Shown here piece after piece: positions 9,594-57,490 of a stretch of 64,000 bases of DNA. How positions within the stretch are numbered: position 1 is the stretch's first letter; each line of letters opens with the position of its first letter. A program made the translations under genes and the position numbers. The stretch lies in contig JAQTTB010000001.1 of assembly GCA_028710985.1 (NCBI GenBank), forward strand, positions 19,280 through 83,279, written 5' to 3'. The DNA is from Patescibacteria group bacterium (lineage in GTDB: Bacteria; Patescibacteriota; Patescibacteriia; JAHJFT01). A model generated the notes under the pieces. The model worked only from the letters and a program-made list of their open reading frames with translations, did no database searches and had not been told where the DNA came from.

Positions 9594-10712
9594 CTACCAA
9601 AATATAATTAGTCGTGCAATTAAAAAATAAAGATTAAACAACGGATTAGCGATTTTAAGCGCCCAATTATTAATTTCCTGATACTCAATCTTCCCTGTGA
9701 AATGACGAAGCACTTCTTTATCCCCGATACTTCTCGCGCGCGCGATTCTCGCGTGCTTGACGAAGAGATACGGCCAGTGCCACGGCGCGATCATCCAAAG
9801 ATATGCCTTAAGCTTCTCGCGCCACCAGCCGGACTTGATGGAAAAAATAAACTGCCCGAGCTCCATCGCGAGAAAGGCCGGCAGAAACACGAGCTGGGTC
9901 AGAAATTTATAATCGCAAAAATATAAAATAAAACGATTTCGCTCCATCCAGTAATATTTTGAAATACTCCGGCTGAATTCATATTCGTGATACACAACCG
10001 ACCGCGGCGCGAGCACGTTCACGAACCCGCCAAGCCGGAGCCGCCAGCCCAGATCCAGGTCTTCGTGATACGCAAAAAGTTTTTCATCAAAAAGCCCGGC
10101 ATCGCGCAAGGCGCCGATCTTGTATAAAACCCCGGCTCCGGAGCCGTAAGCAATTTCCGGAAGCCCGATAAAATCGCGTTCGCTCCGCGCCGCGCGCGAA
10201 CCGCCGCAAAATCCGAATCCCAGATAATGAATCATGTTGCCCGACGAATTAATGAGTCCGCGCTCGGGCCAGAGCGCGAGCAGAGACTGCACCGAACCGA
10301 TTTTCTGATTTGATTCCGCCGCATCGACGGCATGGCGCAAAAAATCCGGCTCAACCCGCGTATCGTAATTTATTAAATAAACATAATCAAAACCCTGCAC
10401 CTGCCTGCCGGTAGGCAGGGCCATTGCATACTCAATCGCGCGGTTGTTTCCGCCGGCAAAGCCGAGATTCGTGTTCATGGGCATAAAGTGAATCTTCGGC
10501 AGCCCCTGGGGCGGCGACTGCATTATCTCCAGAATGCGCTCGCGCGACCCGTCGGTTGACGCATTGTCAACAATAACAAGCTCAACCGCCTCCCGCGGAT
10601 AATCCAAGAGCGCGAGCGATTCAATCCAGGCATCTAAAAAACGCCGCGCCTTCCAGAGCACGGCGATAATTGCCACTCGTTTTACATCCTGATTATTCAT
10701 GCTTTTTTGCAT
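9594..10712 (-). CDS. Glycosyltransferase family 2
   Basis: The GT2 A-fold N-terminus reads VAIIAVLWKARRFLDAWIESLALLDYPREAVELVIVDNASTDGS, with a DxD-like region further on. I chose the internal Met (MQKSMNNQ) at 10712 as start rather than the ORF-track start at 10838. That Met is the first after the upstream overlap. Confidence 0.75.
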   Translation of the reverse strand: MQKSMNNQDVKRVAIIAVLWKARRFLDAWIESLALLDYPREAVELVIVDNASTDGSRERILEIMQSPPQGLPKIHFMPMNTNLGFAGGNNRAIEYAMALPTGRQVQGFDYVYLINYDTRVEPDFLRHAVDAAESNQKIGSVQSLLALWPERGLINSSGNMIHYLGFGFCGGSRAARSERDFIGLPEIAYGSGAGVLYKIGALRDAGLFDEKLFAYHEDLDLGWRLRLGGFVNVLAPRSVVYHEYEFSRSISKYYWMERNRFILYFCDYKFLTQLVFLPAFLAMELGQFIFSIKSGWWREKLKAYLWMIAPWHWPYLFVKHARIARARSIGDKEVLRHFTGKIEYQEINNWALKIANPLFNLYFLIARLIIFW

Positions 10713-43050: not shown

Positions 43051-43264
43051 CTTCCTGCCTGCCGGCAGGCAGGTTGCATACTTTTGGTTACAAAAGTATG
43101 TCCTGCTGAAAGCAAACAAGAGTGGTGCTAGAAAAGATAATTATTGCCCAGACAGGTGGCAGGCAAGAACTTAAAAATCCCAATATTAAAACAACTTGTA
43201 CGATAATATATAATAGGATTCCCCCGGTACATTGAACCTGGATTCCCGCCTTCGCGGGAATGAC
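43051..43264. repeat. Copy A of a 214-bp structured three-hairpin REP/BIME-like repeat
   Basis: It contains the palindromes CCTGCCTGCCGGCAGGCAGG, ATACTTTTGGTTACAAAAGTAT and GGATTCCCGCCTTCGCGGGAATGAC. It is about 90% identical to 56984-57198, judged by eye alignment. Confidence 0.8.
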
Positions 43265-47777: not shown

Positions 47778-50700
47778 CTAGAAGGTCAATACCACGTTTT
47801 CGGTGAGATCCTTGACGAGATACTCGTCAGTCCAATCACCGGTTGACAACGTATCTAATTGAGCGTTGTGCGGTATTGCCGCCTTGTCTGACCAGACAAG
47901 GTAAGCAGCAACTTCGCCACCCACTACACCGGTTGCATCCAAGTTCGGACCACGTACGGTGCCGACCGCGGCTGCATTCAGGTGATAGGTGTAGATGGTT
48001 GAGCTGCCAGTCTTAATAGTTACGTTAAGCGACTCGCTGGAGCCTGCACCGCCAACCGTACCCTTGAGGGTAAAGATGTGGCCGGAGCCAGAAATGCTCT
48101 GCTCTGTGCCGCTCGTGTAACTAATAAAGATTGTGCCCGAGGCATCGGTTGCGCCTTCAACAGTATTGCCGAGGTTATCAGTGATGGTAACCAAATCGGA
48201 AATATCTGTACCGTCCTGGAACCACTTCAAGGTATCAACCGTGAACGCACCGCTCTTAGTGAATTCGAATGTGAGTTTCGCGACACCCGCATCGCCTGCA
48301 CTGTCTGCGGTAACCTTGGTCTTGTAGAGTTCAATCGTACCGTTGGCCAGGCTCGAGCTAGCTAACGCTTGCTTGGCAAAAGTAAGCTTGGTCTTGCGGA
48401 TAACCATTGGGTTGCCCGCGAGGACCGCCGAGGCCGCCGCGTACACGCGCTCGCCGGACATGGCGCCCGTGCCCTTCACATTGTAACTATTGGTATAGTT
48501 CGCATCCCACTCGCCGGTCGTAACATTGTATTCAACCGCGAGTTTCGGGTTGTTGCCCGAGGTTGCGCCTGCGTCAATCGCGTTCAGCTTGCCAACCACC
48601 TGGAAGGTCACACTGCCGTCAGCCGGCACGGTGATCGGGGTGGAAAGCGTGATGTCGGTCGCCGTCGCCGAACCCGGGAACACATCCGTGCCCGAGGAGA
48701 CGATTACGCCGTCCTTCTGAATCGCGAGGTACTTGAAGTCACTATTTGCGCCGCCGCTATAGCGTTGCAGGCGGATCTTGTCAACGGAGATATTTTCGTA
48801 CTGTGAAGTAATCTTGGCTTGGGCAAAGGTTGTCCAAGCATCCTTACCGGCAATGACAATGTCGGTTGACGGATTTGATTCCGCCGCGATTGTCAATGTA
48901 CCGGAATTCTTCACAGTCTGGAAGATTGTCGGACCGTTGTTGATCGGATTGCTCCAAGTCACGTCGCCGTCAGTCGCAGTAACTGAATTGGCATCTGCGT
49001 CTTCGGCCGAAATATCGGTTTCGAGAGCAATACCGACCCAGAATGTGTCATCCGTACCGCCGGAAGTCGCCACTGAATCAAGTATTGCCTTGACAACCAA
49101 TGTCTTGGTTTCACCCGCCGGAATGCTATAGCTGAGACCGTCAAATGTGGCGGTACCCGCCGTTGCATCCGGGCTCTCGGCCGTGCCGAGCTGAGTCGTG
49201 CCATCCCACAGCGTAAGCTGGGTAATGACATCGTCCAGTTGAGCCGCGGTATAACCCGCACCGTTCACATTGCCCTGACCAGTGACTTTAACGCTCGTCA
49301 CTTTGATTGCGCTCTGTGAACCAGCTGTGAACACAAAACCAGATGAAGCAACATCTGATGTCTTCTTGACATAGGTGTCACTCACCGGAGTCGCGGCCAG
49401 CTGAACTGTCAGACTCGATGTCTTGACCGTCATGGTGTTGCCGGTAATAACCGCATTCGGCACGATTTGGGTTACAGCGAGATATTCGCCTGTGGCATTG
49501 TTCTTCACATAATCGGCAGCAAAGGCATTCAACTTGGCCACATATTGGCGATCGCTGTTGAACCAGGCGTTGTTTGCCACATCGGCCTTGAGGGCCAAAT
49601 TCTTGGTTGTGCCCGCGTTCACATAAAATGAATCGCTAACCACCCAAGTGCAAGTAGTTGCATCCTCACCACAGGCGGGACTTCCGCTTGAAAGTTGAGT
49701 CGGACCGGCGACAACTTCGCCGGAATCGGTATCAACTAATTTGATGTCAGTGAACAGATCTGTGGTGGATGCGTCAATGTAGTCATCACCATTGATACCT
49801 GCCAGTGTGAAGCTGATCTTGCGGACCTCGAGAGTGTTCTCGGCCGCAGTCATGCCAAACTGGAAGAAGATCTGATCCTGGCCGGCCTTTGGCATAGTGC
49901 CAGTCGCCGGACCATTGTAAGCGATCGTCAATTGACCGCCCTCGGTATTCGTGGTTACTGAATCGCCGCTATCAAAATCATCAATGTTCACTGCCGCGCC
50001 CCAGCCATAGGTATTATCTGTGGCATCGACATCGGTAGTGTACTCAAGATAGGTAATGATAGAGCGGCCGCCCTTGCCCACGACATCGGCCTTGACATAA
50101 AGAGTCTTGGTTGTGCCGTTGGAAATGAGATAAGGCGTGGCGAGGATAAAGTTTATCTTATCGCCGACAATTGTCGCTGTTTCGGCCACTAATTCTGTAC
50201 CAACATACAGCTTCAGGTTGGTAACGTCGCTGTTCACGACCGTACCGGCCTGAGCGATGCTGATTTGATTAAGCTTAATATCCGCGCTTGCGGCAGTAAG
50301 CTTAAATGAAGAAATCGTGGCTGCAAGTGATCCAACTGTTACGTTGGCCGGATCTGAACCTTCATTCACCGTCAGAGTGGCGGCATCCTGTGCACCAACC
50401 GTGAAGGTGTTGCCGCGTATCGGGAAACTGCCCGAAACCGTGGCGGTTGTGCCAACCTTACTCGTCGCAACGAGCTCTAGGGCATGTTCATCCGCAGCTA
50501 TTGCGGTTGAACTCAAATCGCCGCGGACCGTGAGATACTTGGTCGTGCCGGCGGTAATCGTCAAGTTCAGGTTGTTGAATTGAGCCTCGTTTGAGCTGGT
50601 ATTGATACTGCGACCGCTCGTCAGTCTTGTTGAACCCTCATAGAGGTAGACGTTCGTGAAGTCGCTCGCTGTACCAACGCCAAGGCGATGGAATGTCAGG

Positions 50701-51557
50701 GTATTAAGAATGACATTGCCGTCCGAGCTCGCGGTCACAGCGACCTTAATAAGCTGCACGCTTGACGAACCCTGGGCGACAGTTGCGCCCGCCGGGGTGT
50801 CAGAGGCCAAGGCCACGGCAAGACCGGTGCCTGTGCCGGAAACGCCGGCTACAAGATCCGTAATGCCCGCTTCACCGCCGGTAACCGCGGTTCCGTCCGC
50901 ATAAGTTACATCGGCCGCGACTGGGCTAATTACGAAACGCCATTGGAACATGTTGGCATCAAATGCCGCCTCGTTCGCAATTGCGCGCTTCTGACCATCC
51001 TGAATGTAGTAGACGGATGCACCAGAAGCATACTTAATCAAGCATCCATTCGGATGCACATAAGTGCTGATTGAGGTGCCGATTGAATAGTTGGTGAAGA
51101 ATGAATCCGGAACGTCAACTACCCAGCTGGCCCAATTTGTTCCCCAGAGTTTCTGGGCAACGGCCTCGGTCTCAACCCAATGCAAAACACCGCCGGTCGT
51201 CACGGCATAAACCTTGGGATCGGTGGTAATTTTGATTAGGAATGTACCTGGGCGGATTGTGATATTTCCGCCGATAGAGACTGCCGCGAGTTCCGCGTCA
51301 GTGATCTCTTTCAGGGTTGAGAAATCGGGGTACCATGAATAATAGGTGTTCTCGTTCGGGAAAACGTATCTCTTACCATCTGCTGCGTAATAATACACCG
51401 CCGGTTGGCTGGCCTTAATAAGGTCGCCTGCGGACAAGGTCGCTGCTTCCGCTGCCAAAGGCATTATGAAAGCCGCAAAACCGATTGACCACGCCATGGT
51501 GGTGATAACTACGCCAACGGTAAGGATCCTCTTTGAAATGCGTAGAACTTCAGTCAT
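47778..51557 (-). CDS. Giant (1259 aa) secreted Thr/Ser/Gly/Ala-rich beta-rich surface protein; putative S-layer, adhesin-like and possible glycoprotein
   Basis: It has an N-terminal signal/TM (ILTVGVVITTMAWSIGFAAFIMPLAAEA) and a roughly 200-aa N-terminal domain with repeated aromatic blocks (YYYAADGKRYVFPNENTYYSW / YYIQDGQKRAIANEAAF). Then come about 1000 aa of Ig-like low-complexity T/S/G/V repeats. GC content is higher than in the surrounding genes. Confidence 0.6.
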   Translation of the reverse strand: MTEVLRISKRILTVGVVITTMAWSIGFAAFIMPLAAEAATLSAGDLIKASQPAVYYYAADGKRYVFPNENTYYSWYPDFSTLKEITDAELAAVSIGGNITIRPGTFLIKITTDPKVYAVTTGGVLHWVETEAVAQKLWGTNWASWVVDVPDSFFTNYSIGTSISTYVHPNGCLIKYASGASVYYIQDGQKRAIANEAAFDANMFQWRFVISPVAADVTYADGTAVTGGEAGITDLVAGVSGTGTGLAVALASDTPAGATVAQGSSSVQLIKVAVTASSDGNVILNTLTFHRLGVGTASDFTNVYLYEGSTRLTSGRSINTSSNEAQFNNLNLTITAGTTKYLTVRGDLSSTAIAADEHALELVATSKVGTTATVSGSFPIRGNTFTVGAQDAATLTVNEGSDPANVTVGSLAATISSFKLTAASADIKLNQISIAQAGTVVNSDVTNLKLYVGTELVAETATIVGDKINFILATPYLISNGTTKTLYVKADVVGKGGRSIITYLEYTTDVDATDNTYGWGAAVNIDDFDSGDSVTTNTEGGQLTIAYNGPATGTMPKAGQDQIFFQFGMTAAENTLEVRKISFTLAGINGDDYIDASTTDLFTDIKLVDTDSGEVVAGPTQLSSGSPACGEDATTCTWVVSDSFYVNAGTTKNLALKADVANNAWFNSDRQYVAKLNAFAADYVKNNATGEYLAVTQIVPNAVITGNTMTVKTSSLTVQLAATPVSDTYVKKTSDVASSGFVFTAGSQSAIKVTSVKVTGQGNVNGAGYTAAQLDDVITQLTLWDGTTQLGTAESPDATAGTATFDGLSYSIPAGETKTLVVKAILDSVATSGGTDDTFWVGIALETDISAEDADANSVTATDGDVTWSNPINNGPTIFQTVKNSGTLTIAAESNPSTDIVIAGKDAWTTFAQAKITSQYENISVDKIRLQRYSGGANSDFKYLAIQKDGVIVSSGTDVFPGSATATDITLSTPITVPADGSVTFQVVGKLNAIDAGATSGNNPKLAVEYNVTTGEWDANYTNSYNVKGTGAMSGERVYAAASAVLAGNPMVIRKTKLTFAKQALASSSLANGTIELYKTKVTADSAGDAGVAKLTFEFTKSGAFTVDTLKWFQDGTDISDLVTITDNLGNTVEGATDASGTIFISYTSGTEQSISGSGHIFTLKGTVGGAGSSESLNVTIKTGSSTIYTYHLNAAAVGTVRGPNLDATGVVGGEVAAYLVWSDKAAIPHNAQLDTLSTGDWTDEYLVKDLTENVVLTF

Positions 51558-55229: not shown

Positions 55230-55413
55230 ACCATGATTATTTGTAATGCGATTAATTTGTTATGTAATCTCATTAAATCCTCGTCTTGCCCGCCGAAATC
55301 CCGACCGAACGAAGTGAGCGTCGGGACGAAGGAGGGTCATTGCTATTCTCATATTAAACAACCCACTATACCACATTTTTGCGTTTTTGTCAACTCTCGA
55401 GTCCGGCCAGCTC

Positions 55414-55442
55414 TTGACAAAACCCGCAATTTATGATATACT
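55414..55442 (+). promoter_or_regulatory. Near-consensus sigma-70-type promoter (TTGACA-17-TATACT) upstream of the GC-rich lipoprotein gene
   Basis: ttgacaAAACCCGCAATTTATGAtatact. A GGAGG ribosome-binding site at 55652-55656 lies 8 nt before the ATG at 55665. Confidence 0.5.
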
Positions 55443-55664
55443 TTACCGTTAAAGTCAAAATGGAACAGTCGTATCTTATGACAAATTTTGGCTAAAGCAA
55501 GCCCTTTACAACCTTCTCCCAAGCGTCGAATCTACATTTTCTGGCTATTTTCAGCAATGGTTGGCACACAGTTCAACCCCACCTGCTCGGCTTATATTAT
55601 GCAGATTCATCGCTTAGGAGAAGCAAAACAACCTAAACGCAAAAAACACCGAGGAGGGTGTAAA

Positions 55665-56699
55665 ATGAAGAACTCCAGGATAGTGCTGATTCTCTGCGCC
55701 CTGGTACTGATGGCCTGCGAGACGAGGTACGTGGACGTGGGCGGCGAGCCCGACACCTCCATCGACACCGCGTCCGACAGCGTGGAGCTCTGCTCCGACG
55801 GCCTGGACAACGACATGGACGGCCTGGTCGACTGCAACGACAACGACGGCGACGAGAACTGCCCGCCGTGCGCGGACGCGTCAACCGACGCCGTGGCCGA
55901 CGAGATCGAGGACAGCGCAGAAACCGACGTCCCGCCCGTGGAGCTCTGCTCCGACGGCCTGGACAACGACTTCGACGGACTCGTGGACTGCAACGACGGG
56001 GACGACTGCTGCGATGAAGCAGTGTGCGTTACGAGCGAGCACTGCGCTTCGGAAGACGCTTCAAGCGACTCCGAAGAGGAAGCCGACGCAGTCTCCGACT
56101 CGGGTGCGGATTCGGATCCCGCCGAGGACCCCGTGCCTGACACTGATCCCGACACCGCCTCCGACCCGGATAGCGCAAGCGATCCGGACGCGGTCTCTGA
56201 CCCGGACGTGGTGGACGCCGAAGCCGACGCAGCTGACATCCTCCACTCCGGCCTGGCCACGTTCAAGTGGTGCCGGCCCATGACCATGGCGCGCCCCGAC
56301 CACATTCTCGCGGAATGCTTTGTCTGGGGAAGCCTCTATGAAAGCTGGGATGACTCCTGGGAGCTGGCAACCGGCTCTCCGGACTTCGTCGCACCGGCCG
56401 ACAGCGACTGCATCGAGTTCACCCTGCCAGATCTGGATTACACGCTCCTCGGAATAAGCGTAGAGTGCAACATCACTGCCTATTCCGACTCGGCGTACGG
56501 GCCGTGGGGACGCATCTACGCTCTCGGCGAGTGCACGTGCGGCGGCAGCTGTGTCGTAAAAGGCACGCTTACCGTCCGTTCCGGTCCCGACGCTGATGAC
56601 GCAACCGCCTTGGATCTCACGAGCCTAGTCGTGCAGAATCCGCGATGCGCGTCCCTGAGCGACCAGGCCGGCAACTACGTCCTCTCACCTATTCCATAG
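55665..56699 (+). CDS. Acidic secreted lipoprotein with Cys/Asp-rich calcium-binding-like repeats; strongly GC-rich gene
   Basis: The start is set at [18 protein letters not shown], a signal peptide with lipobox L-M-A-C, preceded by GGAGG. There are two copies of [22 protein letters not shown] plus long D/S/E/A-rich tracts. GC content of about 65% contrasts with about 35-50% elsewhere. Confidence 0.65.
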
Positions 56700-56807
56700 G
56701 GGGTTCGTCTCTCCCCATGGGCAGGATAAGCAAGGTCCCCCCCTACCTTGCCCCTGCCCGCCTTTTTTCAGCGAATCATGCAAATGATTCATTGAAAAAA
56801 GGCAAAA

Positions 56808-56845
56808 ATAAAAAACGCCCCGTGTTTACCGAGGGCGTTTTTTTG
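56808..56845 (+). terminator. Rho-independent terminator of the lipoprotein gene
   Basis: AAAAAACGCCCCGTGTTTACCGAGGGCGTTTTTTT has an 8-bp GC-rich stem and a 7-T run. Confidence 0.75.
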
Positions 56846-56983
56846 TGCATCTTAGTCAGAACATGGGGTTCGGGGGCGCAACTGAGCATGGCGCTAGGAA
56901 GCAGTGAATTGCCTATTTGCCGAGAGCGAACCCGCCTGCCAACGCCTGGCGTAGGCCTGGCGGGCAGGTTTGCGACCCCGAAA

Positions 56984-57400
56984 CTTCCTGCCTGCCGGCA
57001 GGCAGGTTGCATACTTTTGGTTACAAAAGTATGTCCCGCTGAAAGCGAACAAGAGTGATGCTAGAAAACAATAATCAATACCCAGACAAGCGGCAGGCTG
57101 TGGCTAGAAAATCCCAATATTAAAACAACTTGCACGAAAATATTTAATAGGATTCCCCCGGTACATTGAACCTGGATCCCCGCCTTCGCGGGGATGACGA
57201 AGAGAGCACTTTGCCACTTACCGTCATTCCCGCGAAAGCGGGAATCCAGAAACAAAGCCCCTCCAAAATCCCTCTCTGACACGTCGCTCGCGAGCGACGT
57301 GTCTCTGTCTCCCCCTTCCTGCCTGCCGGCAGGCAGGTCAGCCACCCCGAAACTTTTTGGTTACTTTTTGGTTACAAAAAGTAACGCGCCGGAGGCAAGA
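56984..57400. repeat. Copy B of the 214-bp structured repeat (56984-57198), followed by further hairpin modules: a BIME-like array
   Basis: 56984-57198 aligns base-for-base with 43051-43264, with about 20 substitutions and small indels. Downstream modules are an inverted REP (CGTCATTCCCGCGAAAGCGGGAATCCAG), a perfect 13-bp palindrome (GACACGTCGCTCG/CGAGCGACGTGTC), a second CTTCCTGCCTGCCGGCAGGCAGG copy and ACTTTTTGGTTACAAAAAGT. Confidence 0.8.
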
Positions 57401-57459
57401 GACCAGAGGTAAAAAGATGCAAGAAAAAAATGGGAGGCCCAAACGATTGTAGGAGGAAC

Positions 57460-57490
57460 AAAAAGACGTGCCTTTAAGCACGCCTTTTTA
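57460..57490. terminator. Bidirectional rho-independent terminator 3' of the 57499 minus-strand gene
   Basis: AAAAAGACGTGCCTTTAAGCACGCCTTTTT is a short stem-loop flanked by an A-run and a T-run. Confidence 0.6.

Follow-up and report, generated by a model that had tools for sequence, protein, structure and literature searches.

Whether a gene whose base composition differs strongly from that of its genome must have arrived recently from elsewhere is the question raised by one locus of a Patescibacteria group bacterium (assembly GCA_028710985.1). The stretch analysed here, referred to as the window, comprises 64,000 nucleotides (nt) of contig JAQTTB010000001.1 (positions 19,280 to 83,279), and the gene in question is an intact open reading frame (ORF) of 344 codons that encodes a predicted lipoprotein. 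The protein is identical to MDD4994911.1, deposited as "hypothetical protein PHW53_00320" from a metagenome-assembled genome of the Patescibacteria, on a contig of 744 kb. An earlier reading of the DNA letters, referred to here as the original prediction, had attributed the high GC content of this gene to a recent transfer from a high-GC donor. The analysis presented below favours a different explanation, to which a probability of roughly 55% is given: the ORF would be a vertically inherited, clade-specific surface lipoprotein of Patescibacteria (Uhrbacteria-like), and its high GC content would not be the trace of a recent transfer. New are the architecture of the protein, in which two modules are combined with a putative stalk and an orphan domain, and the compositional offset that is found throughout the clade.

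A GC-rich gene kept in one slot

The GC content of the gene is 0.64, with values of 0.64, 0.48 and 0.80 for the first, second and third codon positions, respectively. The third-position value (GC3) ranges from 0.31 to 0.63 in the 49 other long ORFs of the window, which has an overall GC content of 44.8%, and the gene is thus the strong outlier that it had been said to be. In a profile of 300 nt, the GC content changes from 0.42-0.43 just upstream to 0.66-0.68 within the ORF and to about 0.5 after it. The bias starts at the signal peptide, with a GC3 of 0.94 in the first 100 codons and of 0.69-0.80 beyond. The accompanying statement that the neighbouring genes prefer A/T-ending codons was overstated, since their GC3 is 0.50-0.59; it holds for two-fold degenerate codons only, in which NNT is preferred over NNC (N being any base). 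The amino-acid content of the protein is not sufficient to explain the high GC3, because values of 0.57 (z = 9.3) and 0.62 (z = 7.4) are expected under the codon usage of the core genes of the window, representing the host, and of the same-strand genes only, respectively, as compared to the observed 0.80.

The whole window is strongly strand-asymmetric, with a cumulative GC skew that drops steadily over 50-62 kb and with about 44 of the 50 long ORFs located on the minus strand. At four-fold degenerate sites, plus-strand genes contain C at a frequency of 0.45 and G at 0.24, and minus-strand genes contain C at 0.29 and G at 0.36. Because of this asymmetry, codon comparisons must be strand-matched. 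In the same-strand control, the frequency of NNC in two-fold codons was 0.85 in the lipoprotein gene versus 0.44 (odds ratio 7, p = 4e-14), and the gene retained more GAG and less T at four-fold sites. An initial description of the bias as a specific replacement of T by C was rejected, since it was confounded by strand; under the same-strand control, a general rise in GC3 was obtained, which is strongest in two-fold NNY codons (Y being C or T). An avoidance of out-of-frame NTG start codons was considered as well and rejected, the preference for C being barely stronger before G and the neighbouring genes behaving alike.

When the whole protein was used as a query, all matches besides the protein itself covered the repeats only. 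A search with the C-terminal 155 residues among 1.84 billion representative proteins identified one real homologue, P0028 (E = 1.9e-22), while the three weaker matches listed are repetitive, unrelated proteins. P0028 is a protein of Patescibacteria with the same architecture, and its gene, at locus L005, is located in the same slot, between a gene for a GT4 glycosyltransferase (minus strand) and a DUF11-like gene (minus strand), with the slot gene on the plus strand and a GHL15 gene further on. No full-length homologue from a high-GC phylum was found among the 1.84 billion representatives; the best hits had been expected in such phyla, and this expectation was contradicted.

Related loci were collected from metagenomes with the GT4 protein as the seed of the scan, which yielded 80 loci. 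In the six closest of these, with GT4 proteins of 73-77% identity, a gene with 64-72% GC was identified in the same slot, which had been missed by tblastn. In detail, tblastn with the C-terminal domain against 88 loci missed L010-L014, and homology was established there by synteny, alignment and a profile hidden Markov model (HMM). The slot genes of the closest loci code for lipoproteins with one or two acidic Cys repeats, an acidic linker and a C-terminal domain of about 150 amino acids, which aligns with the one of the window protein and shares the final motif N-Y-x-x-x-(L/I)-P. An HMM of the C-terminal domain built from five members finds this domain only in the syntenic loci L005-8, L010, L011, L013 and L014. 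The ORF and the order of its domains are conserved among the window, L005, L011/L012, L013/L010 and L014, and L009 contains a partial copy. The slot lipoprotein gene is present in L005-8 and L009-14 and was recognised in at least five related lineages. Throughout, it diverges from the GT4 gene on one side and converges with the DUF11-like gene on the other; the idea that it would be absent from this locus in close relatives was not borne out. The identity to the window proteins is 66-75% for GT4, 51-59% for the DUF11-like protein and 37-44% for the slot protein. Since in more distant relatives the DUF11-like and GT4 genes are adjacent with no slot gene between them, the slot gene is considered to have been gained once, in the ancestor of the clade. 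Three further searches added little: a two-sequence alignment of the C-terminal domain found no homologues, but it also missed P0001, a member of the query itself, so that little can be concluded from it; a protein search with the L014 C-terminal domain found no homologues, which says little; and a metagenome scan with C-terminal peptide patterns gave no match.

The composition of the slot gene was compared with that of the other genes at the locus in five members. Its GC3 is 0.80 in the window (other genes 0.50-0.59), 0.61 in L005 (0.43-0.60), 0.87 in L011 (0.29-0.51), 0.83 in L013 (0.35-0.40) and 0.79 in L014 (0.44-0.49), and the GC3 of the GT4 gene across these genomes, including L009 and L010, is 0.29-0.57. 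At identical residues of the slot orthologues, codon identity is near chance (for example, 0.49 observed and 0.45 expected), and the synonymous sites are therefore saturated. A gene imported before the split of the lineages should have drifted to the composition of its host, and since it did not do so in any lineage, the composition has been maintained. Related genomes of low GC content thus carry equally GC-rich homologues at this very locus, a finding that the original prediction had itself named as pointing away from transfer. The GC-rich composition of the slot gene is an actively maintained, long-standing trait.

Protein architecture and putative calcium-binding modules

The signal peptide carries a lipobox that was matched by a PS51257-type regular expression, and a lipobox is present at the equivalent place in every family member (MAGC, AYGC, LTGC, LAAC or LSGC). 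No match to Lgt or LspA was found among the about 30 of the about 50 long ORFs of the window that were scanned against Pfam. The protein consists of 17% Asp and contains 81 acidic residues (Asp plus Glu), 10 basic residues (Lys plus Arg) and 20 Cys. The two Cys/Asp repeats and the acidic tract that had been described along with the lipobox are likewise present. On the DNA level, the repeats are 88% identical (55781-55848 and 55937-56004). The two repeats inside one gene, also in L005, L011 and L013, were observed to be more alike than the matching repeats of different orthologues, which suggests concerted evolution or independent duplication; the L014 orthologue has a single repeat.

For the repeats, the NCBIfam model NF033662 was identified, with 46.8 bits for the window protein (cut-off 41, E = 1.7e-12) in two stretches. 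P0028 and the L011 homologue also pass this model, and the repeats of L013 and L014 have diverged below detection. Proteins of the NF033662 class contain four Cys per acidic repeat, forming two disulfides; the first repeat of the window protein has four Cys and the second one six, and their disulfides are predicted. Many metagenomic NF033662 lipoproteins have 5-11 repeats, whereas the window protein has two and continues into a long acidic linker and then an unrelated orphan C-terminal domain. In the literature, nothing relevant was found on the NF033662 name or on GC-rich acidic lipoproteins in Patescibacteria.

A profile built from 117 single-repeat sequences identified the teneurin C-rich domain (human Teneurin-4, residues 834-871, PDB entry 7PLP) with an E value of 1.1e-9, and teneurin-2, teneurin-3, teneurin-4 and Ten-m with E values of 3e-7 to 1.2e-4. 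The second repeat alone aligned with 7PLP in a phmmer search of PDB sequences (E = 0.0011), covering all six Cys with a gap of one residue. The AlphaFold2 (AF2) model of the first repeat has a mean confidence (pLDDT) of 76.6, and a Foldseek search with this 35-residue model ranked 7PLP first, at an E value of 1.7 that is not significant for such a short query. The core C-x-D-x-x-DND-x-DGLVDC-x-D-x-D-CC-x4-C-x5-C is common to the teneurin domain and the window protein. In the crystal structure of 7PLP at 1.5 Å, eight acidic residues and one Asn bind three Ca2+ ions; two of these sites (I and II) are coordinated as in thrombospondin (TSP)-1 type 3 repeats, and the Cys residues are paired 1-3, 2-5 and 4-6 (PMC9058538). 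Counterparts of the teneurin residues D840, D843, N844, D845, D847, D851, D854 and D856, that is, of seven Asp ligands and the Asn ligand, are aligned in the second repeat. For teneurins, the C-rich consensus ExxCx(D/N)xxDx(D/E)xDxxxDCxxx(D/E)CCxxxxCxxxxxC has been described, the motif has been likened to that of MopE, and a non-metazoan origin of the domain has been proposed (PMC3278476). The second repeat fits this consensus except for one residue added before the CC pair, which is also a difference to the Teneurin-4 domain, and for the position of its Glu. While the teneurin module is part of a YD-shell adhesion protein, the window protein is bacterial, tandem-repeated and lipobox-bearing.

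The resemblance to calcium-binding TSP type 3 repeats that had been put forward could be upheld in part. The homology to the teneurin C-rich module stands, but the Pfam TSP models gave no match: for the whole protein, no Pfam family was identified at E <= 1, including TSP_3 (PF02412) and TSP3_bac (PF18884). For the repeat region alone, nothing was found at E <= 1 except for a sub-threshold match to PF11617 (11.9 bits as compared to a gathering threshold of 27, E = 0.29). TSP type 3 repeats share with the window repeats the Asp-rich loops of the DxDxDG type, which in the latter are predicted likewise to bind calcium and to be braced by disulfides, whereas the spacing of Cys and the repeat length differ, and the likeness is a functional resemblance rather than family membership. 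With the MopE-type PF11617 repeats, the core C-x-DG-x-DND-C-DG-x-x-D is shared, while PF11617 proteins have an extra WYxDxDGDGYG half-repeat. EF-hand-like loops of 12 residues (DxDxDGxVDxxD) start at residues 48 and 100, but the strict 13-residue EF-hand pattern PROSITE PS00018 does not match them, since position 13 deviates in both and position 4 in the second repeat as well. Judged by these comparisons, the window protein belongs to the NF033662 repeat class, and its repeats are homologous to the teneurin C-rich module; calcium binding by the repeats is supported by this homology.

The linker that follows the repeats is probably disordered, as judged by its composition. It gave weak low-complexity matches only, to the Ser-Asp regions of SdrC and SdrD, and an equivalent linker rich in Asp, Pro, Thr, Val and Glu is present in all family members. 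For the C-terminal domain, no Pfam match was found, and a profile search against PDB sequences gave nothing below an E value of 1.

Expression signals and the surrounding locus

The gene had been described as having its own promoter, ribosome-binding site and terminator, and all three were confirmed (Table 1). The promoter is located 222 nt upstream of the ATG codon, which implies a long leader. The same promoter, TTGACAAA...TATGGTATATT, is kept upstream of the homologues in L005, L009, L011/L012, L013/L010 and L014. The leader of the window gene folds with a z value of -3.7, and no Rfam match was obtained for it. In L009, L011, L013 and L014, the leaders have the same two-hairpin layout with different stem sequences, and the leader of L005 is shorter. 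RNAalifold, applied to a MAFFT alignment of the leaders, gave no informative consensus, and covariation was therefore judged by eye. Hairpin-plus-T-run sites similar to the terminator are present 3' of the homologues.

Table 1. Features of the lipoprotein gene and of its surroundings in the window.
Feature	Positions	Strand	Description
Sigma-70-type promoter, extended -10	55414..55442	+	TTGACA-17-TGaTATACT; 11/12 consensus positions plus upstream TG
5' leader	55449..55664	+	about 215 nt; 5'-proximal hairpin, long second hairpin, CA-rich AAACAACC stretch, Shine-Dalgarno (SD) sequence
SD sequence GGAGG	55653-55657	+	7 nt before ATG
Lipoprotein gene	55665..56699	+	intact ORF, ATG 55665 to TAG 56699; 344 amino acids
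Lipoprotein signal peptide	55665..55718	+	lipobox L-M-A-C (Cys18)
Acidic Cys repeat 1	55785..55871	+	residues 41-69; four Cys (C43, C57, C66, C69)
Acidic Cys repeat 2	55941..56045	+	residues 93-127; six Cys; complete teneurin-C-rich-like module
Polyanionic D/S/E/A/P linker	56046..56231	+	residues 128-189
C-terminal Cys-containing domain	56232..56696	+	about 155 amino acids; predicted all-beta; clade-restricted
Three successive 3' hairpins	56719..56846	+	minimum free energy -71.8 kcal/mol, z = -8.3
Intrinsic terminator with U-tract	56810-56846	+	last of the three hairpins; apparently bidirectional, same site called on the minus strand
Antisense Ser-rich ORF	55607..56305	-	232 amino acids; not a gene, by-product of the Asp-rich sense sequence
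GT4 glycosyltransferase gene			divergent from the lipoprotein gene
DUF11-like protein gene			631 amino acids; convergent with the lipoprotein gene
GHL15 protein gene			FG-GAP repeats
ECF sigma factor and DUF5667 protein genes			
S8 protease gene			
Wzy_C/TPR protein gene			

The near-consensus extended -10 promoters of the GT4 gene (55393..55365) and the lipoprotein gene are divergent, are conserved nearly base for base in related genomes and together form an imperfect inverted repeat. In the lipoprotein leaders, the AAACAACC stretch before the SD sequence and both hairpins are retained, and the stem of the second hairpin has a different sequence in every lineage; the leader may be mRNA-stabilising or regulatory.

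According to a Pfam scan of the neighbours, the genes around the lipoprotein gene are of the cell-envelope type. For the DUF11-like protein, the closest species representatives belong to Candidatus Uhrbacteria, with about 30% identity. In all close relatives, a conserved protein of 1259-1261 amino acids (window 47778-51557, with homologues in L012 and L014) adjoins the pair of ECF sigma factor and DUF5667 genes. It has no Pfam domain, its gene has the highest NNC usage (0.48) among the minus-strand neighbours examined, and it is probably another major envelope protein. Further away, a block of about 24 co-oriented genes extends over 25 kb (16055-41254), with a GC content of 0.29-0.44 and a GC3 of 0.31-0.49, as compared to 0.47-0.57 in the rest of the window. 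The block codes for polysaccharide biosynthesis, including a Polysacc_synt flippase, several GT4 proteins, methyltransferases, an asparagine synthase and an NAD-dependent epimerase/dehydratase. Horizontal exchange is more plausible for this low-GC glycan island than for the GC-rich lipoprotein ORF.

The lipoprotein gene and the DUF11-like gene are separated by 800 nt in the window, as compared to 170-525 nt in the relatives. The longer gap of the window contains elements resembling repetitive extragenic palindromic (REP) sequences or miniature inverted-repeat transposable elements (MITEs) at 56850-57460. The palindrome CTTCCTGCCTGCCGGCAGGCAGGT is present twice in the gap, each time trailed by TTTTGGTTACAAAA, and also at 10400-10419 and 43054-43073 (intergenic or genic), giving 14 strand-wise matches as compared to 0.01 expected. 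Hairpins of the GGGGATGACG...GTCATTCCCGCGAAAGCGGGAATCC type are located at about 57175-57250, and spurious ORFs of the '...LPAGRQ...' and '...FRGNDG...IPAKAGIQ' kinds overlap the elements. The REP-like palindromes downstream, which occur elsewhere in the window as well, are the only repeats near the lipoprotein gene.

Origin of the GC-rich composition

The following sequence of steps is proposed for the vertically inherited surface lipoprotein. The protein would be exported by the Sec system and then lipidated at Cys18, as suggested by the lipobox, which would anchor it in the membrane. The two disulfide-locked modules of the NF033662/teneurin C-rich type would each chelate Ca2+, as judged from homology and the conserved ligand positions, and the polyanionic linker of about 60 residues would serve as a stalk. 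The orphan beta-rich C-terminal domain would be displayed at the surface, where it would most likely, though speculatively, serve in binding or adhesion, its gene being part of a conserved envelope gene cluster. The high GC content would result from a GC-rich amino-acid make-up together with a gene-specific synonymous bias, held in every lineage with the gene regardless of the GC3 of the genome. Its most likely cause would be a selection of synonymous codons in connection with very high expression or with the stability of the mRNA, which is favoured because the conserved consensus promoter, the structured leader, the strong SD sequence and the strong terminator fit it.

In E. coli, ompA and lpp are highly expressed envelope-protein genes with stabilising hairpins in the 5' untranslated region. 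By analogy only, the lipoprotein gene resembles them in its consensus promoter, a 5' stem-loop and a second hairpin before the ribosome-binding site, its strong SD sequence, its strong terminator and an extreme codon bias. The likeness is one of design and not of sequence, and it differs in that the ribosomal and EF-Ts genes show little codon selection here. Evidence for mRNA structure beyond codon composition was inconsistent, with z values of -1.9 (window), -1.1 (L011) and -5.3 (L014) relative to synonymous permutations. The extra-stable mRNA of L014 (5683-6603) may result from internal linker repeats of the GAC-CCG-GAC type.

Several observations weigh against this explanation. On the side of the protein, the equivalent of teneurin E835 is offset by one residue in the second repeat (-2 instead of -3 from Cys1), the first repeat contains four instead of six Cys and lacks the CC pair of the teneurin module and of its consensus, and the AF2 model of the C-terminal domain, obtained from a two-sequence alignment, is unusable (pLDDT 39). 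On the side of composition, G-ending codons are enriched in addition to C-ending ones in four of the five members, which is not purely a translational signature of C over U. In rpsB, tsf and gap of the window, the enrichment of NNC is weak (0.39-0.50), and it would be unusual for a single gene to be under codon selection of this strength. The third-position spectrum of the gene (A.12, C.47, G.32, T.09) lies within the range of relatives among the Patescibacteria with 57-66% GC, and composition alone is therefore compatible with an old GC-rich source or with allele turnover. Furthermore, the C-terminal domain of the window protein is 46% identical to that of L005 and 29-36% identical to those of L011-14, whereas the flanking genes group the window with L011-14; an acceleration of rate or an exchange of alleles is therefore needed.

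The last two observations are shared by the best of the alternatives, according to which the gene was gained long ago from a GC-rich source, or its alleles in the slot have been replaced repeatedly from a GC-rich pool, for example, of high-GC Patescibacteria, so that turnover rather than selection would keep it GC-rich. This is unlikely. An insertion must have occurred at some point, since the distant relatives have the DUF11-like and GT4 genes without the slot gene, and L019/L020 hold a different acidic, GC-rich lipoprotein with PF11617 repeats in the very slot of the window gene. However, the sampled high-GC relatives (L001, L002, L004, L022, L030, L055, L059 and L060) contain neither a slot gene nor the C-terminal domain, the exhaustive protein search gave no donor-like homologue, and the ends of the flanking genes show no signs of an imported tract. 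The promoter and leader conserved with the gene argue for a long residence of the whole unit.

GC-biased gene conversion at a recombination hot spot, in which frequent recombination in a fast-evolving surface-antigen gene would raise its GC3, appears improbable. It would agree with the faster evolution of the slot gene relative to its neighbours, with the enrichment of both C- and G-ending codons in most members and with the homogenised internal repeats. However, GC3 drops sharply at the edges of the ORF, with an abrupt change at the start codon after leaders of 33-42% GC, and toward the slot no gradient of GC3 is seen in the flanking genes, which argues against conversion tracts. In addition, L005 is enriched in C without an enrichment in G, and, to our knowledge, the shift from 0.3 to 0.87 in L011 far exceeds the effects of biased conversion reported for bacteria.

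A recent horizontal acquisition from a high-GC donor, with a composition that has not yet been ameliorated, is very improbable. The GC3 above that of all other ORFs, the sharp edges and the third-position spectrum like that of high-GC genomes speak for it. Yet the same-slot orthologues occur in genomes that share only 51-75% identity in the flanking proteins, GC3 is high in each lineage although the synonymous sites are saturated, the upstream promoter and leader are conserved along with the gene, and the sole whole-protein homologue belongs to the Patescibacteria. No tRNA genes were found in the window, and no integrase or transposase Pfam domains among the neighbouring genes scanned. Chimeric contigs as the source of the pattern are unlikely, since the assemblies and samples are independent.

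That the real gene is the minus-strand Ser-rich ORF, kept open by the high GC3, can practically be dismissed, as the original prediction had already suspected: long antisense ORFs of 105-156 codons lie opposite the homologues too, but the stop-free run of 223 codons is expected from the sense protein under either codon usage (resampling means of 234 under its own and 203 under host usage, with 18% of the latter simulations at least as long), the sense frame contains the lipobox, the NF033662/teneurin-like repeats and a C-terminal domain conserved across loci, and promoter, SD sequence and terminator all serve the plus strand.

The maintained composition of the vertically inherited lipoprotein gene has parallels in other genes. 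Among the other loci of Patescibacteria from the GT4 search, unrelated acidic Cys-repeat lipoproteins have a GC3 of 0.63-0.96, as compared to locus medians of 0.33-0.52 (L019/L020 4877-6778; L026; L027 11277-14012; L032; L033 5209-7380; L046/L048/L050; L077 11156-13786). Those of L019/L020, L027, L033, L046/L048/L050 and L077 are large and Cys-rich, with a fraction of Asp plus Glu of 0.24-0.31, and only a few kb separate their genes from the orthologous GT4 gene; in those scanned, L019 and L027, the PF11617 (MopE-type) repeats were confirmed. Since strand has little influence on GC3, in contrast to the split between C and G, the offset seems to belong to this gene class as such. It is tentatively suggested, with the odds rather against it, that selection maintains a synonymous composition specific to the gene class via mRNA stability, expression or export, in bacteria that are usually assumed to be nearly without codon selection, and that the outliers of the class are systematically misread as transfers.

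For calls of horizontal gene transfer that are based on composition, the locus is a caution, since a strong GC3 outlier is here an old resident gene. It offers a tractable case of a synonymous composition decoupled from the GC content of the genome over long evolution in the Candidate Phyla Radiation/Patescibacteria, and it bears on the question of selection versus biased conversion at synonymous sites in reduced genomes. The complete six-cysteine module of the teneurin type in bacterial lipoproteins has implications for the proposal that the teneurin C-rich domain is of non-metazoan origin (PMC3278476). Little is known about the cell surface of these organisms and about their attachment to hosts, and the lipoprotein with its orphan C-terminal domain is a candidate for an abundant component of the cell surface.

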